Shown: positions 3,131 through 38,423, numbered from the stretch's first letter. The stretch: 64,000 nt of DNA from Candidatus Sungiibacteriota bacterium (GCA_016180435.1 JACPBG010000004.1:59660-123659); one strand, 5' to 3'. Numbers and translations: made by a program. The notes: generated by a model from the sequence alone, not told the origin.

Positions 3131-3134
3131 AAGC

Positions 3135-3166
<32 letters not shown>

Positions 3167-3257
3167 AGACATGAATGCTAAGATCTAAGTTCTTGAATGC
3201 TAAGTTCTACGTTGCATAGCAACGCTGGCCGCAGTCATAGGAATAAATATCGGATAT

Positions 3258-4205: not shown

Positions 4206-4787
4206 ATGAATACTTTTTTCGAAAAACTTACCAATTCCAAGCCGCAACCCGTTGCGGCCGATATTGGCGCGGAAGAACGCGATGATGAGGCCGCGGTTGT
4301 TGAAAAAGAAGTTACGCCTTCGCAGCCGTCTCCCAAACGCGCGCCCATGCGTAAAATCGCAGCCCCGGTCCAGCTAAAACCCAAACCAACTCAATTAAAA
4401 GTAGAAAGCGAGGAAGCGGAATCAACGGCAGGGGAGAAAGAAAAAGAACTTGAAGAAGAAGGAGAGTTGACTGTAGATATATATGACAATGGTAATGCTA
4501 TTGTAATTCAATCAACCGTAGCCGGAGTAAAGCCGGAGAATTTGGATGTTTCCATAACAACAGATACCGTGACTATTCGCGGGCGAAGGGAAAAATCCGA
4601 AGAGATTAAAGAAGAACATTATTACTACAAGGAACTTTTTTGGGGTTCTTTTTCCCGCTCGGTCATTTTGCCCGAAGAAATTGATGATACTGCCGCAGAG
4701 GCCGCTTTGAAACACGGCCTTCTCACTATCACGCTTCCGAAGAAAAGAAAAGGAGTGGCGCAGAAACTTAAGGTAAAGGTAACCTAA
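4206..4787 (+). CDS. Hsp20/alpha-crystallin family small heat-shock protein with low-complexity N-terminal extension
   Basis: C-terminal alpha-crystallin-like domain LTVDIYDNGNAIVIQSTVAGVKPENLDVSI...GLLTITLPKK. Confidence 0.8.
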   Translation: MNTFFEKLTNSKPQPVAADIGAEERDDEAAVVEKEVTPSQPSPKRAPMRKIAAPVQLKPKPTQLKVESEEAESTAGEKEKELEEEGELTVDIYDNGNAIVIQSTVAGVKPENLDVSITTDTVTIRGRREKSEEIKEEHYYYKELFWGSFSRSVILPEEIDDTAAEAALKHGLLTITLPKKRKGVAQKLKVKVT

Positions 4788-4958
4788 AAATCGCCATCCG
4801 GCGATTTTTTAGTAAATAAGGGTTGGTGTTTATATGATACTGTTCGGACTCATTTTGAGCAAAATCCCGACTGATTTACCCCTTGCTCGCACTCGGACGG
4901 CTCGGCATTCCTCCCCCCAACCCCCTCCTGCCGAGCCGTCCTCACGGTTGTGGCAGTG
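4782..4958. repeat. left terminal inverted repeat (~177 bp) of a TIR-bounded cassette; contains two strong hairpins (terminator-like, and GGACGGCTCGGCA...TGCCGAGCCGTCC)
   Basis: reverse-complement of 9507-9716 nearly base-for-base (right copy has an extra ~26 bp segment). Confidence 0.85.
4786..4812 (+). terminator. rho-independent terminator hairpin AAATCGCC-atcc-GGCGATTT followed by TTTT; also the outer end of the left terminal inverted repeat
   Basis: stem-loop plus T-run directly after hsp20 stop. Confidence 0.7.
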
Positions 4959-4962
4959 GCAT

Positions 4963-5166
4963 TCACGATTTCAATAAACTAGCTCCAAACTCTGAATGAC
5001 ATTTTACACAAAAACCCTTTAGCGTCATTCCAATTGTGTTAATCTTACCGACACTTTCTTTGTAATAGGTGGTACCCCTTACAATATCGCCACTACATCT
5101 ATCGCAACGTCGAGAAACCCGTGCTTTTGTTTCTTTAAGAAACTTAATGCTATCGTATTTACTCAT
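4963..5166 (-). CDS. small zinc-ribbon protein (CxxC...CxxC), last gene of cassette operon; 4-nt overlap with upstream MTase gene
   Basis: RRCDRCSGD ... CVKCHSEFG cysteine pairs; ATGA overlap at 5163-5166. Confidence 0.45.
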   Translation of the reverse strand: MSKYDSIKFLKETKARVSRRCDRCSGDIVRGTTYYKESVGKINTIGMTLKGFCVKCHSEFGASLLKS

Positions 5167-6014
5167 ACGGATTCAGCAAAAGCGTCCGATAGAATCATTA
5201 CCTCTCTGCCTTTGCGCGATTCATAAGCATTATAGTTGAGAGAAAAACTAACGATTTTTCTTTTTGGATATAATGACCTTATTTCTTTCTTGTTATCGTA
5301 AGTAAGTAACCAGAAAGCATCTCGATTCTCATTAAGTTTTTTTGCAAGTGCTTCGTGATTTTCTTTTTGATAGTGGTTGAGGTAAAGTGTTGCCCCCTTT
5401 TCAAAATAAGGGGGGTCGAGATATATGAAAGAGTTTTTCTTGTCTAAATATTCTTCAATCAATTCAAGGCCATCTTTGTTATATACCGAGATTTTGTCCT
5501 TATATCGGCCAAGTTGTTGGATTTTTTTCACCAAACTTTTCTTATTAAATCTTGCATCAATTTTCCATTTCCCTTTTTGGTTTAATCCACCAATAGGTCC
5601 TCCATCTAAAATCCCGGAAATATTAGTTCTATTTAGAAAAAAGGTTGCAAACCCCAGCTTAAAAAGCCATGATTTTGGATTTTCATAAATTGCCTTTTGT
5701 TTTTTCCATTCGTCAATAGTAATTGGGGTTCTGTAAATCTTCCCTACAAACTTTTCTGAATCAAAAATCGCTGACTGCCAAAACGAGTAAATCGCCCTAT
5801 CAAGATCATTAATCACAATTTTTTTGACCCTGCCAGAAAATAAGAGCGCAAGCGCTGCTCCCGCTCCGCCAGCAAACGGTTCAACGTAAGTGAGATTTTT
5901 CAGACCTTGCTCTTTAATAACTTTTTCAAAAAAGGGCACAAGAGAAGTCTTACCTCCAGGATATCGAAGGGGGCTGTGGTAATTTTTCTGATTTTTGTTC
6001 GTTAGTATTTTCAT
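5163..6014 (-). CDS. Dam-family (D12 class) N6-adenine DNA methyltransferase
   Basis: YPGGK near N-terminus, EPFAGGAG (SAM-binding motif I), IYLDPPYFEKG (DPPY motif IV). Confidence 0.85.
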   Translation of the reverse strand: MKILTNKNQKNYHSPLRYPGGKTSLVPFFEKVIKEQGLKNLTYVEPFAGGAGAALALLFSGRVKKIVINDLDRAIYSFWQSAIFDSEKFVGKIYRTPITIDEWKKQKAIYENPKSWLFKLGFATFFLNRTNISGILDGGPIGGLNQKGKWKIDARFNKKSLVKKIQQLGRYKDKISVYNKDGLELIEEYLDKKNSFIYLDPPYFEKGATLYLNHYQKENHEALAKKLNENRDAFWLLTYDNKKEIRSLYPKRKIVSFSLNYNAYESRKGREVMILSDAFAESV

Positions 6015-6035
6015 TCAATTACATTATACGGCAAT

Positions 6036-6962
6036 TTAAAGCGCCTTCCCATACCTTTGGAGGCGTTTGTAAATAGTCGGTAGTTTGGTTTTAAACCATT
6101 CGCCGTTCCATTCTTGCGCCCAAAAAGCGATGCGACTTCTATCGAAGAGTATGCCGACATCTGGGTAATAAAAATCTTGCCAGTCTGATTCATCAACCTC
6201 GTGAGGAACAAAAAAAGAAAAGATTATCCCCGGCATATCCCAAAAAGAGTAATACTGTTGAAGTTCTTTAATTTCCCGCTTCTTGCTTTTGAAATTGTTT
6301 CCAGCGGCGCATTGGCCAAGTAAAAAGAGCTTACTTTTCCTTCCATCTGGAAAAGGGCGCCAAGCCACAATATCAAGACCGGCATCTTTTTTTTGCGAGG
6401 CATTAGAATTATTTTTAATATCGCCTTCATTAACTTTTATCTTCAAGAACTCCAACGCTCTTCTGAAGGGTTTTTTATCCTGCGTCCATGAATTTCTAGG
6501 TGCGCCAAATTGCAAAGATTGAGCGTTCACCTCTTTACTCGAAAGAAAATTTTCCGCAACCAAGGAAGAAAGTTTCTCAAATAGATCAGAGGTTTTTTGT
6601 TTGTCCCAAACTTTTAGCTCTTTTGCGCCTTTTTCCAGTCCGACATATGACACAAGGAGACAAAATAAATATGCCCAATGATTCTTGTTTGGTTTTTTGT
6701 TTTTCACCTCAACGAGTTTCCCATTGAAACGGAAGGGGTAAACTTTATCCAATTTCCTCAATCGGCTCAATAGTTCGCTTGAGACATCTGTTTTAAGATT
6801 TTCAATTGTTGTTTCTCTGTCTGCATATTCTATCTTTAGCTTTGATGCTAAGTCCTCAATGCTGGACGAGTTATCCTTGTCTAACAACGCGTTTACCTCG
6901 AGCCAGTCGGCAAGCTTAATTTTATTAAGTCGTTCTTTTGGTAGATCAATAACAACAGCCAT
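6036..6962 (-). CDS. hypothetical protein, candidate restriction endonuclease partner of the Dam-like methyltransferase
   Basis: position immediately upstream of the MTase in same operon; no motif I can name with certainty (weak PD-(D/E)xK-like stretch GLDIVAWRPF...LLGQCAAG). Confidence 0.3.
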   Translation of the reverse strand: MAVVIDLPKERLNKIKLADWLEVNALLDKDNSSSIEDLASKLKIEYADRETTIENLKTDVSSELLSRLRKLDKVYPFRFNGKLVEVKNKKPNKNHWAYLFCLLVSYVGLEKGAKELKVWDKQKTSDLFEKLSSLVAENFLSSKEVNAQSLQFGAPRNSWTQDKKPFRRALEFLKIKVNEGDIKNNSNASQKKDAGLDIVAWRPFPDGRKSKLFLLGQCAAGNNFKSKKREIKELQQYYSFWDMPGIIFSFFVPHEVDESDWQDFYYPDVGILFDRSRIAFWAQEWNGEWFKTKLPTIYKRLQRYGKAL

Positions 6963-6968
6963 AGCATA

Positions 6969-8108
6969 TTAATTTTTACCGTTACGCTTTGTTCTCATCT
7001 GTTCTAAAATAGTGTTGGCCAATTCAGCAATTTCCTTCATTTGTTTATAAACCTCCTCGTTTCCTTTATATCGATTTAGATAACCGGCCGTTTTTCTAAG
7101 ATTGTTGAGGGCTTTAAAAACGAAATCTTCCAATTTATAATCCTCTGTATCCGTGTAGGATAAAGCATTTTCGAGTGAAGAAAATTCCTGCGAGTTTTCT
7201 CTTAAGTAGTTTGTAGCCAACTTATGTCCCAGAACATTATCGAGGTATTTCAAATCAGGATTTTGGGATTTAATAACAGATTTTTTAGCGCCATCCTTAC
7301 TCCCAAAGAGAAATTCAAGCAATAACCTAAGATTATTAAAATACTTTCTGGGAACTGGATTTTCAGAAAATATCTCCTTTTGTTTGTTTCTTATACCGAG
7401 ATACTTTCTAGTATTGTCATAACCTAGAATTGTGTAGAGGTGGGAAAAGTAAAATCTTCTCAACTCAACTTCTTCTGCTTTGAAATATCCCTCCTTTTCT
7501 GCCTGCTCTAAAACCCGGAGACCGTTGCACATTTTGATAACGGTCAGGTGTCTGTCTCCGATTCTCTCGGCAATCTTCTCAATCGGTATTTTATATTCTT
7601 TGTGAACCCGAAGTGCATATACGGCCTTACTGTAGGAATCCCATTCTTGTGGGCCATTTATATGCCTAAAGCCCAGATAGGTCCAAAGCGTTTGACGATC
7701 CGGGTATATTGCTACCGGTATCTGTTTAGTAAGTTGTGTCTTTAACTTCTCACTAATCTTTTTTTCTGATTTTAAAAGCGTTTTTATTGCAGCTAATCTT
7801 CTATTACCTTCAATTACAACAAATTTGCCCTTGTGTTTTTTGGATTCAACAGTGAGTAAGGGCTCGGTGTTATAAAAGCCATTTTTTTCAAAGGAATCAA
7901 TCAGCTCGTCCAGATGCATTTCTTTTTGTAGCTTACTAAGAATCTCGTTGTCAGATGCATTTTTTGACAAGCCAGCAAATCGTGGATTCTCGCTATCAAG
8001 TAGCAATCTATCCAACTTAACATAGTTGATTTGGATGGGATCTTGCAGAGTTTTGGTTTTTTGTTCGTTCATATTTTTATTCTTCAGAATATTCCGAATA
8101 CTCATCAA
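6969..8108 (-). CDS. ParB/Srx-like nuclease-domain protein with long C-terminal extension
   Basis: LLLDSENPRF and VIEGNRRLAAIKTLL resemble ParB N-terminal domain boxes (NPR... / (V/I)xEG(E/N)RRxRAA). Confidence 0.5.
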   Translation of the reverse strand: MMSIRNILKNKNMNEQKTKTLQDPIQINYVKLDRLLLDSENPRFAGLSKNASDNEILSKLQKEMHLDELIDSFEKNGFYNTEPLLTVESKKHKGKFVVIEGNRRLAAIKTLLKSEKKISEKLKTQLTKQIPVAIYPDRQTLWTYLGFRHINGPQEWDSYSKAVYALRVHKEYKIPIEKIAERIGDRHLTVIKMCNGLRVLEQAEKEGYFKAEEVELRRFYFSHLYTILGYDNTRKYLGIRNKQKEIFSENPVPRKYFNNLRLLLEFLFGSKDGAKKSVIKSQNPDLKYLDNVLGHKLATNYLRENSQEFSSLENALSYTDTEDYKLEDFVFKALNNLRKTAGYLNRYKGNEEVYKQMKEIAELANTILEQMRTKRNGKN

Positions 8109-9195
8109 GAATTGTATCCGTCATATGTTCCAACCTTTTCTCTTTTGCTAATTCATAAATGGAGTCATAGGGAATATATGAACAGAGCTCCGACAAAGGC
8201 CCTTTCTCCATGACCGCAAAGATTGGGCGAGAAATTTGTTTAAAAACTTCATTTCGTCTGTTGTTGGGCGCAACAATATGAATTTTAATTTCTATATTTG
8301 GCAAAAGAGAAAGTAGATCGGCCATTCTTAAAATACCGGAGTAAATCGACGTCGTTCCCTCAACTTCAAACGCTCGAATTATTGTACGCCCTTGAATCCA
8401 AAGAACGTCGATATTTTTAATCGTTCTTAATGTGATGTCATCAAAAGAAAATGGAAGCTCCTCCAATAAGACATTTTCTTTCGGCTTCCATACTTCTAAT
8501 ACTCCCACGCGATCATTTCTTGGTAACCACACCTTAAAACCTAATTTCTCTCCAATTTCCGAGAGTTTGGCCTGAACCCTGATCGATTCCCGCTCCTCGC
8601 CTACTGGTACTACTTCTTGTGCTTCTTTAGTGGGTTCTTCATCTTCCGGAACTGACACAGAAACTTCCTTTTTGCCAGCCAGACGCATTTTTGAAGATTT
8701 TAATTTCTTTTCATCATTTTCACTAAATTTATATTCAACGAGTTTTTGAGATTGTTCAATGAGTATTTTTTCCAAAAACTCGCAATCGGTTTTTGGCCAC
8801 AAACGAGGACTCGAAAAAATCACATACGTCCATTTGTTGCTATCTTTGGCGAATTCTTTTGTAAAAGAAAGATTATTCCAAATAAAGTCCTCGTGAACAG
8901 GAATCGCTTTTTCAAAAGGTAACCAAACTATAGGTTTTACATTAAAGCGCAAAATAAATGGATCATCTTCTTTTTGAAACAGAGGTGTCTTATCTATAAA
9001 ATATTTACTGGTAATTTCCAAAACACCAACGAAGCGTTGTATCCTTGTTACATAGCAAATAAACTTGTCGCCCGGGCCAATATTTTGATTTTCTACATAA
9101 GTTTTTCTGGAAATCCGAAAACCGCTTACATCCTGTTTGGATTGTTCAAATGCTCGTGCGGTTTCCGGAGAAAATAGATCAATAAAGTAACTCAT
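8077..9195 (-). CDS. EVE/PUA-like N-terminal domain fused to C-terminal putative PD-(D/E)xK-like nuclease domain (type IV / modification-dependent restriction-like)
   Basis: N-term GPGDKFICYVTRIQRFVGVLEITSKYF...DPFILRFNVKPIVWL fits PUA-like beta-barrel pattern; C-term IDVLWIQGRTIIRAFEVEGTTSIYSGILRMADL nuclease-like core; acidic low-complexity linker. Confidence 0.45.
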   Translation of the reverse strand: MSYFIDLFSPETARAFEQSKQDVSGFRISRKTYVENQNIGPGDKFICYVTRIQRFVGVLEITSKYFIDKTPLFQKEDDPFILRFNVKPIVWLPFEKAIPVHEDFIWNNLSFTKEFAKDSNKWTYVIFSSPRLWPKTDCEFLEKILIEQSQKLVEYKFSENDEKKLKSSKMRLAGKKEVSVSVPEDEEPTKEAQEVVPVGEERESIRVQAKLSEIGEKLGFKVWLPRNDRVGVLEVWKPKENVLLEELPFSFDDITLRTIKNIDVLWIQGRTIIRAFEVEGTTSIYSGILRMADLLSLLPNIEIKIHIVAPNNRRNEVFKQISRPIFAVMEKGPLSELCSYIPYDSIYELAKEKRLEHMTDTILDEYSEYSEE

Positions 9196-9197
9196 AA

Positions 9198-9407
9198 CTA
9201 TTTCATTAAATCATCAAGCGATACGCCGAGCGCGTCCGCAATTTTCTTAACCGTCTCAATGGTTGGATTAGGTGTCGTTCCGGCTTCAATCTTGGCGATA
9301 GTATGAAAAGCAAGGTTTGCCCTTTTTGAGAGGACATCTTGAGAAATACCGAGCTTGTTTCGGTATTTCTTTATATTCTCGCCAATTGTCGCTCCTTGCT
9401 TTGACAT
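9198..9407 (-). CDS. XRE-family helix-turn-helix transcriptional regulator (controller-protein-like), first gene of cassette operon
   Basis: LGISQDVLSKRANLAFHTIAKIEAG ... IADALGVSLDDL classic HTH_3. Confidence 0.85.
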   Translation of the reverse strand: MSKQGATIGENIKKYRNKLGISQDVLSKRANLAFHTIAKIEAGTTPNPTIETVKKIADALGVSLDDLMK

Positions 9408-9506
9408 AGTTCGTATAGTTATACTATACTAGTTAGTAGATACTCGTTGGTTTAACTATCACAAGTTTAGTATATGCAATTTTTAGGATTTAATCAATTG
9501 GTTGGT

Positions 9507-9716
9507 CACTGCCACAACCGTGAGGACGGCTCGGCAGGAGGGGGTTGGGGGGAGGAATGCCGAGCCGTCCGAGTGCGAGCCGACCAGCAGGGCGGCGAGC
9601 CAATCAAGGGGTAAATCAGTCGGGATTTTGCTCAAAATGAGTCCGAACAGTATCATATAAACACCAACCCTTATTTACTAAAAAATCGCCGGATGGCGAT
9701 TTTTTAGTAAATAAGG
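9507..9716. repeat. right terminal inverted repeat (~210 bp), outer end is a perfect extended palindrome ccaacccttatttactaaaaaatcgcc-ggat-ggcgattttttagtaaataagggttgg, abutting tRNA-Ala 3' end
   Basis: reverse complement of 4782-4958. Confidence 0.85.
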
Positions 9717-9718
9717 GT

Positions 9719-9789
9719 TGGACCTACGGGGAGTCGAACCCCGACCTCATCCATGCCATGGATGCGTAATGCCGCTTTACTATAGGCCC
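9719..9789 (-). tRNA. tRNA-Ala (anticodon GGC), G3:U70 present, CCA not encoded
   Basis: cloverleaf folds by hand: acceptor GGGCCTA/TAGGTCC, anticodon loop ATGGCAT, T-loop TTCGACT. Confidence 0.85.
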
Positions 9790-9817
9790 GTTTCGATCTT
9801 AAATTGTGATGATATTA

Positions 9818-10303
9818 TTACGGTATATTTTTATACACATCGATAATTCGTTTAATCGTAGCGGCTAATTCTTTGTCGTCCCGGATATCAGTATCTTGTA
9901 AAGATTCTTCAAGCGCCCGTACCGCCGCTTTTTTATTGGATTGAGATTCCATGAATACCGTAAGATGGATAGCCGCGAGCCGCTGTTTTTTATTTTTTTC
10001 GATCATCGGCGCGTCATCGGATAATTTTTGTTCCATAATTTTTTTCAAAATCGATTGCAGCGCGGCACGTTCCGGAGTTGTTTTTTCGACGGTTTCACGT
10101 TTCGATTTCTCTTCCATCCCCACTTCGCCCCCCTTCGCAAAACCCTCCGATGCGGCAACGGAGAGGAATGCACCGAGCGCAAGGGCGGATGTCTTTTTTC
10201 CGATGCGTTTCAATGCCAACGATTTTTCCTGTTTCAATTTATTGTCCGTACGCACCTCTTTATGCTTCGGTATATTCTCTGATGGTTGCCGTTCAAAATT
10301 CAT
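9818..10303 (-). CDS. hypothetical protein with N-terminal hydrophobic anchor/signal, charged low-complexity body
   Basis: ORF only. Confidence 0.4.
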   Translation of the reverse strand: MNFERQPSENIPKHKEVRTDNKLKQEKSLALKRIGKKTSALALGAFLSVAASEGFAKGGEVGMEEKSKRETVEKTTPERAALQSILKKIMEQKLSDDAPMIEKNKKQRLAAIHLTVFMESQSNKKAAVRALEESLQDTDIRDDKELAATIKRIIDVYKNIP

Positions 10304-10343
10304 ATAAAAAATATTTTACGAATAATAATTTTATACGACCGTA

Positions 10344-10790
10344 TTAAATTCGCGTATAAGATAATACCAATAATCCGACTAAAACAATTGTAAACACTAT
10401 TTCAGATTTTGAAAATATCGGTAAAAATCCTCTAATCTTATGCTTGAACGGATAAAAATACTGTTTTTCGTCTTGATCGGGCCAGTCCAGAATTAAATGC
10501 ACAAGATAAGCAATAAAGAAATAAAAAGCACCAGTTATATTTATAAATAATATTGGAATAGTCATAACAGCTGCTCCTAAAATAGAATGCGCATATTTTG
10601 TTTTATAGCGTATATTGTGGGCGTCTTCAAATCTCATGCTGTCTATGATTTTATTCCAAGAAAAAATTTTATGCCGGTATAAGACAAATAAATGGTCAAG
10701 GTCGGGAATAATTGAACCCGCCAGCCAAAACCAAGAAAATTGGTAATTATTTACTGGCATCGTACCTATTATTAAGTGCGCAAAAATCAT
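10344..10790 (-). CDS. membrane-bound metal-dependent hydrolase-like protein (YdjM/DUF457-like)
   Basis: LIIGTMPVNNYQFSWFWLAGSIIPDLDHLF pattern (H..G....PDxDH) and 4 TM. Confidence 0.4.
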   Translation of the reverse strand: MIFAHLIIGTMPVNNYQFSWFWLAGSIIPDLDHLFVLYRHKIFSWNKIIDSMRFEDAHNIRYKTKYAHSILGAAVMTIPILFINITGAFYFFIAYLVHLILDWPDQDEKQYFYPFKHKIRGFLPIFSKSEIVFTIVLVGLLVLSYTRI

Positions 10791-10900
10791 ATTATTTTTT
10801 TATCCTCAATTCTAAACTTTGCACGAACCCATTTTGAGCATAACCTTGGGCCATAGTGGGCGCAAGGTGACCTCCGCAGCTCACCCAGCCCCGCCATTGG

Positions 10901-10938
10901 CTCCTTTTCAATTAGAAATCAATTTTTGTGGGTTTTGG
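10901..10938. repeat. 38-bp inverted repeat, left copy (tccttttcaattagaaatcaatttttgtgggttttggg)
   Basis: perfect reverse complement at 12105-12142. Confidence 0.8.
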
Positions 10939-11040
10939 GGCGTTACTGACTTGCCGCTAGGTAGGCCGGAGTTACCCGAGTATGATGTATAAAATGATTT
11001 GCCACAAACAAATTTATTGTTACACCCCTGCGAACTAATT

Positions 11041-12048
11041 TTATCGCATTCTTAACTCGCACGCTTCTCGTGAGCTCATGGACTTGCCGTCAACAATAAA
11101 AGAATGTTTTATAAGCGAATTATCAAAGGTGCTGCACGGATTCGGATCAGAATAAGAAGTTTTATAAGCTAGGATACACTTTTTAAAGTTTGGCGCATAA
11201 ACAAAAAGTTCGTTGCAAATAGTCACGTCTCTTGATTTTATGGCGTAAGCAACTATACAAGCACCTGTCGCATCTTCCGGTAAATCGATTTTTATATTGA
11301 GATCATTTTTGGGCTCTGGTCTAATTTTATACTTTGAAGAGGTCAAGCGCGCTACTTCTGGTTTTTGGCACTCAACAACTGATTTTGCGGCATAAATCCT
11401 GTTGTAGAAAATAGCTTCTGCAAAAGTATAGTTAAAAATATATGCCCCCATCAATATTACTATTAAAAATATGAACCCTATTCTGTAGTAAAAAAATGAT
11501 TTTACTTTACTAATACCGGATATAACTCCTGCTACCCACATCATGCCTGCCAGGTAAGCCGTGTATAAAATATAGGACATTGTATTAACTAAATATAAAG
11601 GGGTTTCTACATCAAGAAAGAATTTTAAGTTTTCGGCACCGACTAGAAATATGTTTAACAAATAATGCCTTAAAAGCGTTATGCCGACTCCATCATAAAT
11701 ATTAGAATCTCTAACCGCTGGTATTAAAAGTAGTACCAAGAATAATATTGCTAAAAAATATTTTTTGGTAAGAAATTTTTTAGTTGTAAAAAATATTACT
11801 AGTGCATAACCTACCACAAGTCCAAGATTTATTAAGGCGTTAAATGGAGCCCAAAGAATACTAGGAAACAAGGCTGTGTAAAATACAAATCCACATCCTC
11901 CAAAGGAGCAACCATAATAAATCAAAGGCGCTGAAAGCGCTATAATAAACGAGAAGAAAAACAATCTTTTCCTAGAATATACAAACTTTTCTGTAATAGT
12001 TCCAGTGGACATTAATTTAAGAATAACTTGTCGGTCTTTTATTATCAA
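11041..12048 (-). CDS. AT-rich polytopic membrane protein with Cys-rich C-terminal extracytoplasmic region; hypothetical
   Basis: ~8 TM helices, C-terminal CxxxC-rich tail; markedly lower GC than neighbours. Confidence 0.55.
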   Translation of the reverse strand: MIIKDRQVILKLMSTGTITEKFVYSRKRLFFFSFIIALSAPLIYYGCSFGGCGFVFYTALFPSILWAPFNALINLGLVVGYALVIFFTTKKFLTKKYFLAILFLVLLLIPAVRDSNIYDGVGITLLRHYLLNIFLVGAENLKFFLDVETPLYLVNTMSYILYTAYLAGMMWVAGVISGISKVKSFFYYRIGFIFLIVILMGAYIFNYTFAEAIFYNRIYAAKSVVECQKPEVARLTSSKYKIRPEPKNDLNIKIDLPEDATGACIVAYAIKSRDVTICNELFVYAPNFKKCILAYKTSYSDPNPCSTFDNSLIKHSFIVDGKSMSSREACELRMR

Positions 12049-12104
12049 GTTCCGATTACAAGTCTGGTATATGTGCGGATTAGCTCCACTTTTGCGCTAG
12101 CAAA

Positions 12105-12142
12105 GCCCAAAACCCACAAAAATTGATTTCTAATTGAAAAGG
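12105..12142. repeat. 38-bp inverted repeat, right copy
   Basis: reverse complement of 10901-10938. Confidence 0.8.
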
Positions 12143-12194
12143 AAATTCCGCGCGCCCACCTTCTCCGCTAAAGGCGGGTTGCGGGTTTTTGGAG

Positions 12195-12298
12195 CGAGTC
12201 CCAGCATGATAATACTTTCCCGATTTTTGGGGGAGGTTGCCTCGCCGCTTCGCGGCTCGGCTCGGCGGCTTTGCGCAAGGCGCAAAGCCAAAAAATCC
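12195..12298. repeat. ~104-bp inverted repeat, left copy (upstream of recombinase start)
   Basis: reverse complement of 13775-13876 with few mismatches. Confidence 0.8.
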
Positions 12299-12361
12299 CA
12301 CGGCGCGGAAAACGAAAAGGAAGCGGATAAGGAATATCTAAAATCAATAATTTAAGAAATT

Positions 12362-13972
12362 ATGCTCAAACCAAAATATTTTCTCTACGCTCGCAAGAGC
12401 ACCGAGGATGATGACAAACAAGTAATGTCTATTGAAGCACAGCTTTTTGAATTGCGTGAATTTGCCAAAAGAGAAAATATTGAAATTCTTGAAGAATTTA
12501 CCGAGGCGAAAAGCGCAAAGACGCCGGGACGAGAAGTATTTAATTTAATGATGGGAAAAATTGAAAAATTGGAGGGAGTTGGAATCCTCGCGTGGCACCC
12601 AGATCGTCTCGCTAGAAATTCTGTTGATGGTGGTAAAATCGTTTATTTTGTTGATACGCAAAAAATAATTTCTTTGCGCTTTCCGCAATTTTGGTTTGAG
12701 CCAACTCCGCAAGGGAAATTTATGTTGCAAGTGGCGTTCGGACAGAGCAAATATTTTTCTGACAACTTGGTGGAAAATGTAAAGCGCGGTATCCGCCAAA
12801 AACTCCGCCGTGGCGAGTGGTTGACGCTCGCACCCTTTGGCTATGTGAACAATCCGAAAACGAGACAAATTGAACCGCACCCTACCAAATCAAAAATTGT
12901 CGTGCGAGCGTTTGAGGAGTTTGCCAAAGGAACGCATACGCTCAAAAGTATGTCGGAGTTTTTGGCGGAGCTTGGCGTTGAAACAAAGAACCGAACGCCA
13001 CTTGCGAAATGCAGTATTCACCACTTACTTACCAATCGCGCCTATCTCGGTTTTGTCGCGCACCACGGCGAATATCACGAGGGCACATTTCCGCCAATTC
13101 TTTCCCTCGCAACCTTTGAAGCCGTGCAGGAAGTATTGAAAAGGAAAGCGAAACCTCGCAAATCCAAACAGAGGCACAATTTCCCTTTTACCGGACTACT
13201 CACCTGCGGAGAGTGCGGCTCGGCGATCACCGCGCAATTCGCGCACGGCAATGGCGGAACATATCGCTACTATCGGTGCACGCGGAAAAAGGGAAATTGC
13301 GCTCAAAGATATTTGCGAGAGGATTTACTCGTTTCGCAATTAAAAGCACGGCTTCAAAGCGTTGCGCTTTGCGATGAGTGGATAAAGAAAATGTTAGCGA
13401 AAGTAAATGAATGGGAAAAAGAAAAAGTCCACTCATCGCAAACATTCGTCCAAAATCTGGAAACCAAAAGAACGGCCACGCAAGAGAAACTGGATAAACT
13501 TGTCTCGGCGTATATTGACGGCGACATACCCAAAGAAAACTATTTGAAAAAGAAAGAGGAGTTATTGAAGCAAAAAGTTTCTTTTGCGTCCCAAAAATCG
13601 GATTTTGGACGAACGGGAAAGAATTGGATCGAACCCTTGCGGAGTTGGATTTTAGATATACAGAAAGCCGAAAAATTGTCGCAGAGCGACAATTTTGAGG
13701 ACATTAAGGCGTTTGTCCAAAAAGTTGGAACGAACCATCAACTTTTGGACAAATCCGCTTCATTTTCGTTTTCTGCGCCGTGGGATTATGCGGCTTTGCG
13801 TCTCGCGCAAAGCCGCCAAGCCGAGGGGCGAAGCGGCGAGGCAACCTCCCCCAAAAATCGGGAAAGTATTATCATGTCCCCTCGGGAAGAATTGAACTCC
13901 CATTTTCTCCTTAGGACGGAGACGCTCTGTCCGTTGAGCTACGAGGGGGTTTGGATATTCGCTAAAATATAG
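12362..13972 (+). CDS. large serine recombinase (resolvase/invertase catalytic domain + recombinase domain + zinc ribbon); annotated ORF reads through right repeat and tRNA-Arg so true stop may be as given or protein C-terminus is fortuitous read-through
   Basis: YARKSTEDDDKQ (catalytic Ser region), LAWHPDRLARN, VKRGIRQKLRRGEWLTLAPFGY, CGECGS...YRYYRC. Confidence 0.85.
   Translation: MLKPKYFLYARKSTEDDDKQVMSIEAQLFELREFAKRENIEILEEFTEAKSAKTPGREVFNLMMGKIEKLEGVGILAWHPDRLARNSVDGGKIVYFVDTQKIISLRFPQFWFEPTPQGKFMLQVAFGQSKYFSDNLVENVKRGIRQKLRRGEWLTLAPFGYVNNPKTRQIEPHPTKSKIVVRAFEEFAKGTHTLKSMSEFLAELGVETKNRTPLAKCSIHHLLTNRAYLGFVAHHGEYHEGTFPPILSLATFEAVQEVLKRKAKPRKSKQRHNFPFTGLLTCGECGSAITAQFAHGNGGTYRYYRCTRKKGNCAQRYLREDLLVSQLKARLQSVALCDEWIKKMLAKVNEWEKEKVHSSQTFVQNLETKRTATQEKLDKLVSAYIDGDIPKENYLKKKEELLKQKVSFASQKSDFGRTGKNWIEPLRSWILDIQKAEKLSQSDNFEDIKAFVQKVGTNHQLLDKSASFSFSAPWDYAALRLAQSRQAEGRSGEATSPKNRESIIMSPREELNSHFLLRTETLCPLSYEGVWIFAKI
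13775..13876. repeat. ~104-bp inverted repeat, right copy, lying inside 3' end of recombinase ORF and abutting tRNA-Arg(CCT) 3' end
   Basis: reverse complement of 12195-12298. Confidence 0.8.
13877..13948 (-). tRNA. tRNA-Arg (anticodon CCT); overlapped by 3' end of recombinase ORF
   Basis: cloverleaf by hand: acceptor CCCCTCG/CGAGGGG, D-arm GCTC..GAGC, anticodon loop GTCCTAA, T-loop TTCAATT; backbone very similar to tRNA-Arg(TCT) at 17102. Confidence 0.7.
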
Positions 13973-13984
13973 TATCATAAATTT

Positions 13985-15058
13985 ATGCCTTACACAAACT
14001 ATGAGGAAAAAATAATTGATACGGTAAAAAAAGTGATGCCCGCGGTGGTGTCTATTGTTGTTGGGAAGACCTATGACGAAATTGTAAAAGAGCGTCCGTA
14101 TGAGCTCATGGTGCCGCACGGCGATCATGTGGATTTGCCGCCGCCGGAGGAAGATTTGCCGCACACTCCATCCGGTAAAGTGCGTATTGGCGGAGGATCA
14201 GGATTTATTATTGACGCCTCCGGTCTTATTTTAACCAATAAACACGTGGTTTTTGACGAAAAAGCAGAATATCTTGTAACTACCGCGGCTGAAGACACGT
14301 ATCCCGCTAAAGTTATTGCGCGTGATCCGTTAAATGATGTGGCAATCGTAAAAATAGAAGCGGAGAATTTGCAGGTTATTTCTCTGGGAAATTCAAATGC
14401 CATAGAGCTCGGGCAAACCGCGCTTGCGGTTGGCACGGCTCTGGGTGAATTCCAGAATACGGTTTCGGCCGGAATTGTTTCCGGACTGTCGCGTTTTATC
14501 AATGCCATTACCGATATGGAAGGACATTCGGAACGGCTGCGGGGGCTGATTCAGACCGATGCCGCCATAAATCCGGGAAATTCCGGCGGGCCGCTGGTAA
14601 ATTTAAAAGGCGAGGCAATCGGAATTAACGCGGCCGTGGTTTTCGGCGCGCAAAACATAGGGTTTGCGATTCCCATCAATAAAGCCAAGTACGATCTTGA
14701 TGAATTAAAAAAATACGGTCGTATTCGCCGGCCTTTTCTGGGCATCCGCTATATCCTTTTAAACCCCATGCTTAAACGCAGATTTCGTTTGGCGGTTGAT
14801 CGGGGCGCATTTGTGTTGCGCGAGGGGGTTCCGGGGCGATCGGCCGTGATAGCCGGATCAGCCGCGGAAAAAGCGGGCATACATGAGACCGATATAATCC
14901 TTGAGCTTAATCAAATCAAAATAGACGAAAAAACCTCGCCCGAGGATATCTTGGAAGGTGCGGCTTTGGGCACAAAAATACCCGTAAGAATTTTACGGGA
15001 CGGCAAAGAAGAAATTTTAACAGCACCAGTTGAAGAGCGCGCGATATCAACCGGATAG
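13985..15058 (+). CDS. htrA: HtrA/DegP-family serine protease with C-terminal PDZ domain
   Basis: catalytic triad contexts TNKHVV (His), NDVAIVKIE (Asp), GNSGGPLVN (Ser). Confidence 0.85.
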   Translation: MPYTNYEEKIIDTVKKVMPAVVSIVVGKTYDEIVKERPYELMVPHGDHVDLPPPEEDLPHTPSGKVRIGGGSGFIIDASGLILTNKHVVFDEKAEYLVTTAAEDTYPAKVIARDPLNDVAIVKIEAENLQVISLGNSNAIELGQTALAVGTALGEFQNTVSAGIVSGLSRFINAITDMEGHSERLRGLIQTDAAINPGNSGGPLVNLKGEAIGINAAVVFGAQNIGFAIPINKAKYDLDELKKYGRIRRPFLGIRYILLNPMLKRRFRLAVDRGAFVLREGVPGRSAVIAGSAAEKAGIHETDIILELNQIKIDEKTSPEDILEGAALGTKIPVRILRDGKEEILTAPVEERAISTG

Positions 15059-15063
15059 ATACG

Positions 15064-15447
15064 TTAGGCCGTGCCAGCCGCCTTTTTTACGCGCTCTACA
15101 ATTTCCGGGAGCGCGAAATTTGCTTTTACAAGATAATCAATCGCGCCCAGGCGTTTGGCTTCTTCAATATCGGTTTCTTCCGAGAGGTTTGAAAGAAACA
15201 TGGCTTTCATTTCCGGTCCTCCGGGTTCGCGCCGTATTTTGCGCAGTGTGTCAAAGCCGTTTTGGTCCGGAAGCAGTACGTCAAGTAGAATAATATCCGG
15301 CGCGGATTCTTTGAATTTTTCAACACCCTCGGCTCCGGTACGCGCCACCGAAATTTCAAAACCCGCATTGGAGAATTCATGCGTCAAAAGTTCCACCATA
15401 AAGGCGTCGTCCTCAACCAATAGAATTTTATGAGAAGTTTCTGCCAT
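15064..15447 (-). CDS. single-domain CheY-like response regulator (receiver domain); start taken at MAETSHKILLVEDD rather than longest ORF (15573)
   Basis: ILLVEDD...DIILLDVLLPDQNGFD...KAMFLSN receiver-domain pattern. Confidence 0.75.
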   Translation of the reverse strand: MAETSHKILLVEDDAFMVELLTHEFSNAGFEISVARTGAEGVEKFKESAPDIILLDVLLPDQNGFDTLRKIRREPGGPEMKAMFLSNLSEETDIEEAKRLGAIDYLVKANFALPEIVERVKKAAGTA

Positions 15448-15451
15448 AAAT

Positions 15452-15571
15452 GGGATTGTTGCCGAATGCGCTTTCGTAGCGAAAATGATGAATTTTGAGA
15501 CAAAATCGCTGAATAAACTTGGCGGCCTATCTGAAAGATAAGCCAAGAAGATGGTATTCGGCAACAGTCCC
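15452..15571 (-). ncRNA. ~120-nt structured 5' leader element immediately upstream of response-regulator start codon; second copy at 62732-62893
   Basis: outer stem GGGATTGTTGCC/GGCAACAGTCCC, internal hairpins CGCTttcgtAGCG and TTGGC..TATCtgaaaGATA..GCCAA; conserved blocks shared with 62732-62893. Confidence 0.45.
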
Positions 15572-15629
15572 AAATATAGTGTATAACTTTATTGGATTAA
15601 AATCAAAAACCGGTTTTGCACAAAACTTG

Positions 15630-15702
15630 GGCGGCTAGAGAGAATTGAACTCTCGCTAAGGGTTCCACAAACCCCTGTGACTGCCACTACACCATAGCCG
15701 CC
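15630..15702 (-). tRNA. tRNA-His (anticodon GTG) with encoded G-1 opposite C73
   Basis: anticodon loop TTGTGGA, T-loop TTCAATT, acceptor GCGGCTA/TAGCCGC plus extra 5' G. Confidence 0.8.
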
Positions 15703-15763
15703 AACCCATCAAATTATACCGTAAAAACTTCCAAAAATCAACTTTTCATGCTATAATTAGTAA

Positions 15764-17101
15764 ATGCCGAAAATCCCGAAAAAGCAGGTTAAAAATCGCG
15801 TAAAACCCGAACTTGGGGGCGGTTTTCGCGACTATGGGCCGGAGGACGCAATTTTGCGTATTCGCCTTGTTGAAAAAATCAAAAAAACATTCGAGGATTT
15901 CGGATTTGATCCTATGGAAACGCCGGCCGTGGAACGCACGGAAGTGCTTCTGGGCGGCGAGAAAGAATCGGGCAAGATTATATTTAATGTTAGCGGATCA
16001 AAGGAGAAAAAATCGGATCTGTCGTTGCGTTTTGATTTAACGGTGCCGCTCGCGCGTTTTTTATCCGCAAATCCCGATGTCCCCAAGCCATTCAAGCGTT
16101 ATCAGATCGGAAATTCGTGGCGGGGCGAGTCGCCGCAAGCCGGCAGATACCGCGAATTCATGCAGGCGGATCTGGATATTGCGGGCGCATCCTCTTCGGA
16201 TGCGGATGCCGAAATAATCTCCGTGATTTGGAAAACCTTCAAAAATCTGGGAATAAGCAAATTTCTTATTAAAATCAATAGCCGTAAAATTCTGAATGGT
16301 TTGCCGCAATACGCCGGGTTTCCGGAAAAAAAATTGCCGGAGCTCCTGCGCCTTATCGATAAAAAAGAAAAAATCGGGGATGCCGCATTGCCAAAAGAAT
16401 TAAATAAACAATTTAAGTCCAAGGCATCCGGGAAAATTATGGAAGTTATGGCCATATCCGGAGACACCAAGACCCGCCTTTTGAAAATACGGGAATTGCT
16501 GAAAGATGTGCCGGTTGCGCAGGAGGGAGTCAATGAACTTATCGAAATCGTCAGGAATTTAAACGCAAGCGGCGTCTTACCGGAAAACTGGGAAATTGAT
16601 TTTTCCATAGCGCGGGGGCTTGGATATTATACCGGCTCGGTATTTGAGACGTATTTAACCGATGCTAAAGAATTCGGAAGCGTGGCATCCGGCGGGCGGT
16701 ATGATATGCTAACTGCTCCTTTCACCGGGCAAAAACTTCCGACGGTCGGCGGATCTATCGGCGTGGACCGGCTGTATGCCGCGTTTGAAAAATTAAATTT
16801 GCTGAAGAAAAAACAAACTACGACAAAGGTTCTTATTTTAAATTTGGCAGAGGAATTAAAAAAAGAATATCTTGCGTTTGCCCAGACGCTTCGATCCGCG
16901 AATATTAACACCTCATTTTATCTTGGGGATGATCGCGCGTTTCAGGCCCAACTGGCATACGCTGTAAAAAGAGAAATTCCCCTTGTTTTGATTTATGGAG
17001 AGAACGAAGACAAAAAAGGAACTGTGACTATAAAAAATCTGGTGACGCGGGAACAAAAAGAAATCCCGAAAGAAAAGATTGTGGAATATTTTAGAAAATA
17101 A
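15764..17101 (+). CDS. hisS: histidyl-tRNA synthetase
   Basis: class II motifs: FRDYGPEDAILR, RFDLTVPLARF, YQIGNSWRGESPQAGRYREFMQADLDIAG, GGRYDML. Confidence 0.9.
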   Translation: MPKIPKKQVKNRVKPELGGGFRDYGPEDAILRIRLVEKIKKTFEDFGFDPMETPAVERTEVLLGGEKESGKIIFNVSGSKEKKSDLSLRFDLTVPLARFLSANPDVPKPFKRYQIGNSWRGESPQAGRYREFMQADLDIAGASSSDADAEIISVIWKTFKNLGISKFLIKINSRKILNGLPQYAGFPEKKLPELLRLIDKKEKIGDAALPKELNKQFKSKASGKIMEVMAISGDTKTRLLKIRELLKDVPVAQEGVNELIEIVRNLNASGVLPENWEIDFSIARGLGYYTGSVFETYLTDAKEFGSVASGGRYDMLTAPFTGQKLPTVGGSIGVDRLYAAFEKLNLLKKKQTTTKVLILNLAEELKKEYLAFAQTLRSANINTSFYLGDDRAFQAQLAYAVKREIPLVLIYGENEDKKGTVTIKNLVTREQKEIPKEKIVEYFRK

Positions 17102-17173
17102 GCCCTCGTAGTTCAACGGACAGAACAGCGCTCTTCTAAGGCGCATATGGGGGTTCAATTCCCTCCGAGGGCG
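17102..17173 (+). tRNA. tRNA-Arg (anticodon TCT), starts 1 nt after hisS stop
   Basis: acceptor GCCCTCG/CGAGGGC, anticodon loop CTTCTAA, T-loop TTCAATT. Confidence 0.85.
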
Positions 17174-17211
17174 ATTTGATTTTTTTAATCCGTTGTATAT
17201 ACTTTAGTTAT

Positions 17212-17484
17212 ATGAAAACCTTAATCAGTATCAAGGCCGACATTGACGTGAAGAGGCGGGCGCAAAAAGCGGCTAAAGAGCTGGGGATACCGCTTAGCAC
17301 CATAGTTAATGCATATCTCAAACAATTGGGCCGTGAACCGCGGATTAGTTTTGCTGTGCCGTTAAGGCCCAATAAAAAGACCGCAGAGTTACTCCAGCGG
17401 GCCAGTAGGGACTATCGCAGGGGGAGAAATATCTCTCCGGAGTTTTCTACGGGAGAGGAAATGGATGAGTATCTAAACTCATGA
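17212..17484 (+). CDS. RelB/DinJ-family antitoxin
   Basis: MKTLISIKADIDVKRRAQKAAKELGIPLSTIVNAYLKQL ribbon-helix-helix DinJ-like N-terminus; 4-nt overlap with toxin gene. Confidence 0.7.
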   Translation: MKTLISIKADIDVKRRAQKAAKELGIPLSTIVNAYLKQLGREPRISFAVPLRPNKKTAELLQRASRDYRRGRNISPEFSTGEEMDEYLNS

Positions 17485-17741
17485 AAATCATCCTCCACCG
17501 GAATTTCAAGAAACAATACATAAAACTCCGCGATGAAGAACGGCAGCGGTTTGGAGAAAGGAGAGATTTATTTCTTAAAAATCCATTCCACCCCATTCTT
17601 AATAATCATCCTCTACACGGAGCTTATCGGGGTTATCGCAGTATTAGCGTGGGCGGAGATTTACGAGTAATTTATGAAGAAATAGATTCTTATACCGTAT
17701 ATTTTATTCTCATCGACACTCACAGCAATCTTTACGAATAA
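17481..17741 (+). CDS. RelE/YafQ-family toxin (mRNA interferase)
   Basis: LHGAYRGYRSISVGGDLRVIYEE matches YafQ/RelE core; operonic with antitoxin. Confidence 0.7.
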   Translation: MKIILHRNFKKQYIKLRDEERQRFGERRDLFLKNPFHPILNNHPLHGAYRGYRSISVGGDLRVIYEEIDSYTVYFILIDTHSNLYE

Positions 17742-17820
17742 TCAATAGGCGTAAACTATATTTTGAATTTGCTTGCACTGAGCGAGGTCGAAGTGGGGGA
17801 AGAAAATTTTTATTCATGCT

Positions 17821-18582
17821 ATGCAAATTAAATTTCCAACGAATTTCCATGAAAAAACTTTTAATTCTGCGGTAGATTTCCTAAAGAAAGAAAAAAATGT
17901 AATGGCTCTTACACTATCCGGAGCTTGCGCTCGTGGTGAGGGTTCGTATGATTCAGATATTGATATAGACGCCTTTGTAGAAAACCCTGATACCGGCAAA
18001 GAAATTTGGGAAAGATTTGAAAAGTTTGCCTCTACAATTGGCACATCGAATGAAGTTGCGAAATATTTTGGCATGGACTTACACATAAGATTTGCTGATA
18101 TCAAGCCCAAAAAGAGGGGTTGGACCGATGGTCCGGACGATTTTGAGCTTGAGATAGGTAATGCTTTTATCTATTCCCAGCTTATTTTTGAAAAAGAAGA
18201 TTTTTTTACTAAAGCAAAAGAAAAATATTTGCCATACTATGATGAGACATTGCGTCAAGAACGCTTGAAAGAGGTGTTGAAATTTTGCAATAACAATCTC
18301 GGTCACATAGAGCCTTATGTAAAAAGAGGACTTCATTTTCAAGCGTTCAAACGACTGTATGACGCAAGCAAAGAATTTCTTCAAGCCCTTTTTATCCACA
18401 AGAGAATTTATCCCATTGCTTACGATAAGTGGGTGAAAAAGCAAATTGTAGAAATTCTTCAGTTGCCGGAACTCTACAAAGAGTTTGTGACTCTCTACGA
18501 AATTTCTAAACTTGAAAGTGATGAGCTGGTGCATAAGGGCGATAAATTACATAATTTATTGAATCAGTATATTAAGATTTAA
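17821..18582 (+). CDS. nucleotidyltransferase-fold protein (KNTase/ANT(4')-like or minimal NTase + helical C-domain)
   Basis: LSGACARGEGSYDSDIDIDAFV = G[SG]x9-13Dh[DE]h NTase signature; 253 aa. Confidence 0.6.
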   Translation: MQIKFPTNFHEKTFNSAVDFLKKEKNVMALTLSGACARGEGSYDSDIDIDAFVENPDTGKEIWERFEKFASTIGTSNEVAKYFGMDLHIRFADIKPKKRGWTDGPDDFELEIGNAFIYSQLIFEKEDFFTKAKEKYLPYYDETLRQERLKEVLKFCNNNLGHIEPYVKRGLHFQAFKRLYDASKEFLQALFIHKRIYPIAYDKWVKKQIVEILQLPELYKEFVTLYEISKLESDELVHKGDKLHNLLNQYIKI

Positions 18583-27427: not shown

Positions 27428-27558
27428 AAGTTAACGTGCTGGGTTAGATATACGACATAATTATATAAAATACAAGGGCGTCTCGTACCAAATAAAATTC
27501 CCGTCACGTAAACGTAACGGGCTACTAAGTTCTAAGATCTAAGTTCTTGGTGCTTGTC

Positions 27559-38181: not shown

Positions 38182-38216
38182 GCGGAATGTTCCAGGTTCG
38201 AGCCCTGGTGGGGGGA
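38144..38216 (+). tRNA. tRNA-Lys (anticodon CTT)
   Basis: acceptor CCCCCCA/TGGGGGG, anticodon loop CTCTTAA, T-loop TTCGAGC. Confidence 0.8.
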
Positions 38217-38423
38217 AAATGCGGAGCATTTTCCGAGTTCACTTCCTGCTCTCCGTTCATTCATGAACGCAGAAATTGAAGTTAACTCCGGGCTGTGCCT
38301 AGGAGGCACGGAAATGATTGCCATTATTTTCCCCACTTATTGAACGATGCGCGAACTTATAAAAAAATGTGCTTGACTCAAAAAATGCGTATAATATTGA
38401 TATAAATCAAGTATTATAAAAGC

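Follow-up and report, generated by a model that had tools for sequence, protein, structure and literature searches.

An inverted-repeat-bounded serine recombinase unit and cargo cassette at the 3′ end of a tRNA-Arg gene in a Candidatus Sungiibacteriota bacterium

Within a 64,000-nt stretch of DNA from Candidatus Sungiibacteriota bacterium (GCA_016180435.1 JACPBG010000004.1:59660-123659; hereafter the window), the genes for tRNA-Ala(GGC) and tRNA-Arg(CCT) enclose a variable segment in which a large serine recombinase (LSR) gene points at the 3′ end of tRNA-Arg(CCT). The same segment holds an AT-rich open reading frame (ORF) of 335 aa, a YdjM-family membrane protein gene and a 161-aa hypothetical ORF (Table 1). 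An earlier reading of the sequence, here called the original prediction, took the whole of 9719-13948 as a small integrated element at a tRNA 3′ end. A recombinase-borne insertion at the 3′ end of tRNA-Arg was upheld, but the recognisable element covers only ∼10800-13876 and its anatomy is not classical: it is modular, an LSR unit bounded by one inverted repeat standing beside a cargo cassette bounded by another.

Gene content and anatomy of the inter-tRNA segment

Inverted repeats were found by self-comparison of the window. One of 124 nt, 92% identical, encloses the LSR gene only. Another, of 38 nt and 100% identical, encloses the 335-aa ORF within a decayed second cassette (∼10800-12204) to the left of the LSR unit.

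The recombinase matches the Pfam families Resolvase (PF00239, E 6e-22), Recombinase (PF07508, E 2e-12) and Zn_ribbon_recom (PF13408, E 3e-12). The serine nucleophile and Arg/Asp cluster that mark an LSR are present, and an alignment of 17 sequences (the protein and 16 homologues) shows no variation at R11, S13, D81, R82 and R85 or at the zinc-ribbon cysteines C282, C285, C306 and C313. In the same alignment conservation stops near residue 478 (∼13795), and what follows is a non-conserved read-through tail that crosses arm and tRNA in antisense. An ESNP or DSNP motif found in the tails of many homologues is the antisense of the tRNA T-arm, and the tails are otherwise unrelated. The ORF does pass antisense through the whole of tRNA-Arg(CCT), as originally claimed (12362-13972 covers 13876-13948), but there is no functional reason to speak of an integrase reading into the tRNA, the conserved protein stopping ∼80 nt short of it.

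At a threshold of E 1e-10, more than 6500 homologues were detected. Identity is 60-90% among the best 120 listed, the nearest relative reaching 89%, and the named sources of homologues are nearly all Patescibacteria/Parcubacteria. The nearest solved structures are those of SPbeta SprA/YokA and of the A118 integrase, whose C-terminal domain matched; the nearest NCBIfam models, CcrA/B and XisF, gave scores far under their cut-offs. No relatives were found among the 2.9 M viral contigs of IMG/VR, and identity to any GenBank phage or plasmid LSR does not exceed 29%. By these comparisons the enzyme appears to belong to a distinct, Patescibacteria-specific LSR clade that is not phage-borne. Four other identities were tried and rejected: a prophage, on the viral comparisons just given and with no phage structural or replication genes between the boundaries; an IS607-family serine transposase, the NCBIfam IS607 model scoring 21.7 bits against a cut-off of 110 and the element having 124-nt inverted ends; a small invertase of the Hin/Gin/Cin type, the protein being a three-domain LSR of ∼480 aa; and an integron, the enzyme being a serine recombinase and the cassettes having repeat arms at both ends.

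The 335-aa ORF fits its first description as an AT-rich, Cys-tailed membrane protein, being hydrophobic, with a GC content of 0.338 and six cysteines within its final 110 residues. It has no match in Pfam, NCBIfam or PADLOC and, among 5.8 billion proteins, matched only itself, making it an ORFan. A GC content of 0.318 was obtained for ydjM and of 0.455 for the window; the LSR unit, at 0.455, equals the window average. The family assignment of YdjM was borne out (PF04307, E 6e-12). Since its start codon lies 15 nt beyond the distal boundary of the element, ydjM is flank or older accretion, outside the recognisable element and inside the variable inter-tRNA segment. For the 161-aa ORF, secretion is plausible.

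The variability of this segment, suspected in the original prediction, is seen in a syntenic relative (locus L084; ∼80% nucleotide identity, protease 89% identical). Window and relative have in common the gene order hsp20, tRNA-Ala, tRNA-Arg(CCT), protease, tRNA-His, HisRS. In the relative only 1.68 kb separates tRNA-Ala from tRNA-Arg, with different genes: an XRE gene and a different Cys-rich membrane protein between two inverted copies of a motif described below (psi), then a 106-nt hairpin and the tRNA. LSR, ydjM and the 161-aa ORF are all absent from it. Similarity between the two Cys-tailed membrane proteins is marginal at best (E 0.067); the cargo differs, and lies between psi sites that are 97% identical. 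Between hsp20 and tRNA-Ala the relative has a 250-nt spacer only, without the defence cassette that the window carries there. Since the relative lacks the LSR unit and has only this spacer at tRNA-Ala, both cassettes of the window are insertions relative to it, and the inter-tRNA segment is a hot spot.

Both tRNA genes are on the minus strand, ARAGORN and Rfam calls agreeing with each other and with the original prediction. The tRNA-Arg genes of window (13876-13948) and relative (2967-3038) are conserved in the acceptor and D arm and differ in the anticodon stem and T arm, with many compensated changes and the T-loop TTCAATT in the window. The 3′ half of tRNA-Arg(CCT) in the window may have been replaced by an element-borne copy.

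Of the features expected of a tRNA-integrated element, the recombinase gene is tRNA-proximal, the element adjoins the tRNA 3′ end, and it is present in the window and absent from the syntenic relative. The expected distal att site, a direct repeat of the tRNA-Arg 3′ segment of at least 16 nt, was not found: repeat search and fuzzy matching with up to 6 mismatches returned nothing in the window except one 16-mer with 2 mismatches (10703-10718, inside ydjM), which matches the T-loop and not the acceptor end and is near chance level (∼0.1 expected).

A snap-back palindrome, CCCAGCCCCGCC AAT GGCGGGGCTGGG, terminates L081 (Logan SRR4343430, positions 1-31), a contig of the same population, and falls precisely on the outer edge of the left 38-nt arm (window 10901/10902). 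It is either a structural variant, that is, a cargo-less arm-to-arm palindrome, or a library artefact.

Table 1. Features between and beside tRNA-Ala and tRNA-Arg, in window positions.
Feature	Positions	Strand	Remarks
LSR-less cassette at tRNA-Ala 3′ side	4786-9704		B-type arms 4786-4958 / 9507-9704; 4.9 kb
PD-Lambda-5 B methyltransferase	5163-6014		tRNA-Ala cassette; E 5e-113
Hypothetical	6036-6962		tRNA-Ala cassette
PD-Lambda-5 A ParB-like	6969-8108		tRNA-Ala cassette
REase_II-like/EVE protein	8077-9195		tRNA-Ala cassette
C-protein helix-turn-helix (HTH)	9198-9407		tRNA-Ala cassette
tRNA-Ala(GGC)	9719-9789	-	ARAGORN and Rfam
161-aa hypothetical ORF	9818-10303	-	one hydrophobic segment; variable inter-tRNA segment
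YdjM-family membrane protein	10344-10790	-	PF04307
Distal site c3	10800-10838	-	psi(-) 10808-10838 and core ∼10800-10805 (GGATA, tRNA strand)
B arm, left, surviving part	10902-10939		pairs with 12106-12143
335-aa hydrophobic cargo ORF	11041-12048	-	AT-rich, Cys-containing tail
B arm, right, surviving part	12106-12143		38 nt, 100% complementary to 10902-10939
Degenerate psi(+)/core remnant, site c2	12144-12204	+	relatives carry psi directly left of the LSR left arm
Left arm A′	12205-12328		ends 33 nt before LSR start codon
LSR ORF, 536 aa	12362-13972	+	Resolvase, Recombinase, Zn_ribbon_recom (Pfam)
Right arm A	13753-13876		last conserved LSR codons and ∼80 nt, including hairpin 13790-13814; ends on the last base of tRNA-Arg
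tRNA-Arg(CCT)	13876-13948	-	ARAGORN; Rfam tRNA 59.7 bits; 3′ end is the anchor of the element (half-site T)

Arms, cores and psi sites across the family

Genomic loci of 80 LSR relatives were fetched, 54 of them with enough flank to be judged. An inverted repeat of at least 50 nt flanks the gene in 53 of the 54 (median 131 nt; median identity 99%, range 77-100%), and 50 have a convergent tRNA no more than 130 nt away, with ten tRNA types represented. The outer end of the arm overlaps the tRNA 3′ end by 4-9 nt in 47/49 loci, and at none of the 54 does the tRNA lie on the 5′ side of the LSR gene. Nucleotide similarity between the window and a tRNA-Leu locus (L001) is 88% and spans 12208-13873, the repeat-bounded unit; with a tRNA-Lys locus (L004) it is 87%, from 12205 on into the tRNA, to 13941. 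Such limits suggest that the LSR unit is a discrete unit. The closed genome CP060229.1 has two copies (L016, L017) at different tRNAs and with different cores.

Many contigs end one k-mer length into the left arm, as is expected of a real inverted repeat in de Bruijn assemblies. These breaks in the arms, together with contig-end arm copies that are exactly one k-mer long (99 nt at several loci, 55 or 71 nt at one or two), could be read to mean that the inverted repeats are chimeric joins or collapsed repeats. Such an origin is very improbable: imperfect arms (77-98%) cannot come from k-mers, many long contigs, and the closed chromosome, have both arms in their interior, and the architecture recurs across independent studies and assemblers. 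The arms were also considered as structured RNA and rejected, the cargo-side arm of L005 folding no better than shuffles (z -0.62) and the score of arm A in the window being due to its terminator hairpin; Rfam E-value scans of 9000-18000 and of L009 7600-8100 found tRNAs only.

The outermost 4-7 nt of both arms, here called the core, are the same as the terminal bases of the neighbouring tRNA followed by a CCA-like triplet. The core co-varies with tRNA type: CGACCA at tRNA-Pro, TCACA at tRNA-Glu, CCGCA at tRNA-Ser, CCAC(C)A at tRNA-Ala and tRNA-Val, GCACA at tRNA-Arg and tRNA-Gly, and GGACA at tRNA-Lys. Across the LSR unit from the tRNA, psi is followed by an identical core, and a further copy, directly oriented, closes the distal end of the cargo cassette in L004, L005, L006, L017, L026, L048, L061 and L079. 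Beyond this far core lies ordinary chromosome; at L056, for example, an ordinary protein-coding gene starts 20 nt later, which from reading its translation, unchecked against a family library, we take to be that of the CCA-adding enzyme.

Psi itself is a conserved motif of ∼35 nt, consensus TTC.AAAAAAGTTCG.GCAAAGGTTA..AATTCA, directly left of the LSR left arm in 45/45 tabulated loci with a complete left flank. It holds a T-loop-like GTTCG 24 nt from the boundary, compared with 18 nt in a true T-arm, and we infer from this resemblance that psi may be a T-arm mimic. As a sigma-70 promoter it was rejected, a consensus scan making no call.

In ∼18 loci a second, inverted psi is found 0.14-7.5 kb further left. 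The two psi stand at the outer ends of arms of 150-270 nt (B arms) that are homologous between genomes and overlap the LSR left arm by the core. The DNA between the B arms is unrelated from locus to locus, and related LSR units adjoin different cargo, which includes several membrane proteins and a 793-aa secreted protein as well as, presumably, from reading translations only, hydrolases, a symporter, an ABC transporter and a deaminase. The main cargo ORFs are on the tRNA strand in ∼10/13 cassettes. Loci with no second psi nearby still have psi and a B arm, and at least 4 of the 7 examined have a small XRE-type gene beside the LSR.

Very often (L001, L033, L040, L043, L084 and, in the window, 9198-9407) the gene that opens the cargo at the tRNA-proximal, LSR-side B arm encodes a small XRE-family HTH protein and is transcribed in the direction leading away from the arm; it may regulate the element.

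The distal psi of the window was recovered by nhmmer (E 1.5e-6) and is 97% identical to the psi of the syntenic relative and 94% to that of L004; the site that includes it, c3, is proposed as the distal boundary of the element. The LSR-proximal psi no longer scores in a psi profile search. With arms 92% identical, this psi unrecognisable and the B arms down to 38 nt, the element in the window is old and partly decayed. How far decay has gone bears on a harsher view of this copy, namely that it is an immobile relic with a decaying or non-functional AT-rich ORF, so that the region is accreted DNA only. The arms, set against a family median of 99%, the lost psi, the short B arms and the ORFan cargo all point that way. 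A full-length LSR ORF, 89% identical to its nearest relative and with every invariant residue present, and a distal psi still so close to that of the relative argue otherwise. We regard such a fate as quite possible for the window copy, if somewhat against the odds, and it is compatible with the family-level explanation given below.

A candidate recombination scheme and its alternatives

We consider it reasonably probable (roughly 60%) that ∼10800-13876 belongs, as an integrated and partly decayed copy, to a family of integrative cassettes found across Patescibacteria, specific for tRNA 3′ ends and run by a dedicated LSR clade. Read on the tRNA strand, a complete member consists of the tRNA end (T), the short core, arm A, the reversed LSR gene, arm A′, an inverted core, psi with a B arm, cargo, a B arm with psi, the core and chromosomal flank (F), giving three sites: T-core-A, psi-core-A in inverted orientation, and psi-core-F. 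The LSR would recombine the element site psi-core-A with chromosomal T-core-F at the 4-7-nt core, with T-core-A on the tRNA side and psi-core-F distally as products, and excision would likewise take place at the cores. That the enzyme catalyses such attP × attB recombination, with a 2-nt crossover, is suggested by the core common to the three sites. The LSR unit would thereby be set against the tRNA, with mature tRNA sequence intact and an identical core left distally, and psi, if it mimics the T-arm, would allow one protein to read both partners. Binding sites would lie in the long, near-identical arms, as would a GC hairpin, probably an insulator of the LSR gene; with gene conversion keeping the two alike, the arms could allow whole cassettes to be swapped or flipped. 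On this scheme the core would co-vary with the tRNA because the element must restore the tRNA end, and the three sites would account for direct core repeats, precise distal boundaries and variable presence.

Several observations weigh against this account. A single attP × attB event cannot create the internal inverted psi-core-A′ beside the LSR; either two inverted sites are part of the element, or another process is at work. Orientation of the LSR is uniform in 54/54 loci, although arms so nearly identical have no means of fixing it. Half-site F lacks conservation, unusually for an LSR attB. In cassettes without an LSR, at tRNA-Ala here and at tRNA-Arg in the syntenic relative, a perfect hairpin that the model does not predict stands in place of the LSR unit. 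The scheme leaves these four points unexplained, and they keep readings based on insertion-sequence (IS)-like transposition, inversion or cassette exchange alive. In the window, moreover, the core is only ∼3 nt (CAT / GGA) and the LSR-proximal psi is beyond recognition, for which reasons this copy may no longer be able to move. No empty tRNA-Arg site, excised circle or alternative orientation was seen in the same population, where exact-protein matches were Logan contigs of 1-1.6 kb that break in the arms.

Related searches were likewise negative. An exact tRNA-Arg pattern had no match in metagenome contigs, and the small contigs L111 and L112, considered as free circles, proved to be ordinary chromosomal contexts. 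Between pairs of related loci, cargo replacement was seen and inversion was not.

In an alternative reading, only the 1.67-kb inverted-repeat-bounded LSR unit is mobile, in the manner of an IS. Its arms would be the halves of a palindromic minicircle attP, inserted between a tRNA 3′ end and an inverted psi that form a quasi-palindromic attB, and the cargo cassettes would be separate entities. Each junction of the unit would then combine a T-like outer half-site with an A-type inner one, in keeping with LSR biochemistry; similarity between distant genomes is limited to the unit, and many contigs of ∼1.7-2 kb carry it alone. A perfect inverted repeat through the junction nevertheless needs a palindromic crossover dinucleotide, and in arms of the L048 type (CCGCAGAAAGAAAC) candidates are found only inside the tRNA end. 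Such a crossover would also yield both orientations, against 0/54 reversed loci. Psi, for its part, is conserved, and between L001 and L004 its divergence parallels that of the unit, as if it were travelling along, and loci with no second psi nearby keep psi, the B arm and usually the XRE-type gene. On balance, we find independent mobility of the LSR unit unlikely. A model in which two independent circles with palindromic att sites integrated in succession was rejected: at L005 the sites c1 (CCACCA) and c2 (TGGTGG) have no common same-strand dinucleotide, so that c2 is truly inverted.

Successive sites point in opposite directions (T forward, psi reverse, psi forward), long repeats have cores at their outer ends, and the recombinase, like hin, lies within an inverted-repeat-flanked segment. 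An LSR that flips its own gene and the neighbouring cassette, as in a shufflon- or Hin-like inversion system, could vary expression of surface or defence cargo near the strong tRNA promoter, and the cargo is often membrane, secreted or defence genes. The Salmonella hin H segment, the P1 cin C segment with its 0.6-kb inverted repeats and the shufflons use small invertases or Rci, and both orientations are seen. They resemble the present loci in a recombinase flanked by inverted repeats, in outer-end crossovers and in alternating sites. Here, in contrast, there is one orientation only, the LSR unit being reversed in none of the 54 loci; the enzyme is a full-length LSR and not a small invertase; cargo genes are mostly co-oriented with the tRNA (∼10/13 cassettes); and units sit at different tRNAs. 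Different tRNA hosts, different cargo between identical arms and absence from the syntenic relative would all go unexplained, and inversion as the function of these loci is improbable.

Cassette exchange can be taken further than the scheme of tRNA-3′-end-specific integration does. The LSR may run an integron-like, tRNA-anchored gene-capture platform in Patescibacteria, with cassettes bounded by inverted T-arm-mimic sites and exchanged, flipped or added by double crossover. Integrons use the tyrosine recombinase IntI, folded single-stranded substrates and an attC at one cassette end. The likeness lies in a recombinase with an adjacent site, in divergently oriented, exchangeable cassettes of one or a few genes and in palindromic bounds; here, however, the palindrome is split between both cassette ends. 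We regard such a platform as speculative and rather doubtful. If it existed, it would be a natural form of recombinase-mediated cassette exchange, workable even on linear environmental DNA, and a single LSR would act in trans on cassettes without one at other tRNAs, the PD-Lambda-5/restriction-modification cassette at tRNA-Ala among them.

Compared with described LSR elements and prophages (phiC31, Bxb1, A118, SPbeta SprA, SCCmec Ccr), the proposed family of integrative cassettes has the same three-domain enzyme class, site-specific insertion at a defined chromosomal site and a short core at both ends. It differs from them in sequence (≤29% identity), in having no phage or conjugation genes, in placing the recombinase gene between near-perfect inverted repeats of ∼130 nt, in a second, inverted element site inside, and in a partner half-site that would mimic the tRNA T-arm. 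The closest functional analogues are the tycheposons and tRNA islands of Prochlorococcus. Tycheposons are small cargo elements beside specific tRNAs, with mostly tyrosine recombinases whose lineages are split by tRNA target, partial-tRNA direct repeats of ∼40 nt and replication modules; variable DNA, defence genes included, accumulates next to the tRNA, and elements can stand one after another (bioRxiv 10.1101/2020.12.28.424599). Common to both cases are tRNA-specific integration, cargo, accretion and serial elements, whereas the present elements have an LSR, a core of 4-7 nt, inverted-repeat-bounded modules and no replication gene. If circular when free, an element would also recall the yeast 2-micron plasmid, with two long inverted repeats that carry sites and part the recombinase segment from a second one. 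That plasmid (FLP-FRT) is a replicon with a different enzyme class; here neither a replication function nor a free circle was seen. In full-text searches, which did not reach subscription-only papers, no account of this architecture or of LSRs in Patescibacteria was found.

Patescibacteria make up a large share of bacterial diversity and have tiny genomes, and little is known of how they acquire genes. A single, highly conserved LSR clade at the 3′ ends of many different tRNAs, with conserved arms around exchangeable cargo (membrane proteins, secreted proteins and anti-phage systems among it), would constitute a main route of accessory-gene flux in this group and would explain the frequent assembly breaks beside their tRNAs. 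The enzymes are compact, apparently self-sufficient, and appear to recognise a tRNA T-arm together with a short, programmable core; because of this apparent mode of recognition they would be candidate genome-engineering integrases with predictable targets. Sites of alternating orientation are unlike textbook LSR integration and would point to cassette exchange or controlled inversion.

The tRNA-Ala cassette and other tRNA-side DNA

Directly beyond tRNA-Ala the window holds a cassette with the genes of a PD-Lambda-5 system and no recombinase (Table 1). Its inverted repeat (173-198 nt) is identical apart from one 24-nt indel, encloses 4.5 kb and follows the B-arm design, a psi-like end and then a hairpin with a C-rich loop. 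A perfect 58-nt hairpin (9664-9721), composed of the native tRNA flank and terminator and their inverted copy, joins the cassette to tRNA-Ala. Because the cassette has no recombinase, one would need to be supplied in trans.

A further candidate site lies at tRNA-Lys(CTT) (38143-38217, plus strand). After this tRNA stands a hairpin module of ∼110 nt that has its homologue behind tRNA-Arg in the syntenic relative. Past the module come a weak inverted psi (38334-38360), a near-consensus promoter (TTGACT-17-TATAAT, ∼38373-38401) and genes at 38424-41639, and a psi-like 44-mer has a 73% direct repeat at 41685-41728. The span 38143-41730 is probably a third cassette site.

Many tRNA genes are followed directly by a conserved module of ∼150 nt without a recombinase, ordered as a terminator hairpin, an inverted copy of the last 18-20 nt of the tRNA, a body bearing conserved stems and a direct copy of this tRNA end (L009 7794-7995; L029 3992-4185; L026 13660-13858 and 14417-14610; L036 947-1078; L061 5138-5265). 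The tRNA-end copies of 18-20 nt in L026, L036, L061 and L079 belong to this separate module. The module, without an Rfam match, may be a structured RNA; alternatively, it may be related to the cassettes as a miniature, non-autonomous form.

Directly after tRNA-Arg(TCT) (17102-17173, plus strand) a RelB/RelE-like pair (17176-17484, 17481-17741) and a nucleotidyltransferase-like ORF span 17176-18582 at a GC content of 0.36-0.37, which may be another tRNA-side accretion. The ValRS ORF (23-3130) seems to hold an inserted histidine-phosphatase-like segment with the motif RHGETDFN..., and AGAACTT heptamer repeats occur near both ends of this gene (35-68, 3116-3177) and again at 27525-27555. A 100-nt direct repeat, 85% identical (15450-15549 / 62730-62829), covers the 5′ region of a response-regulator gene (15064-15573) and a locus 47 kb away.

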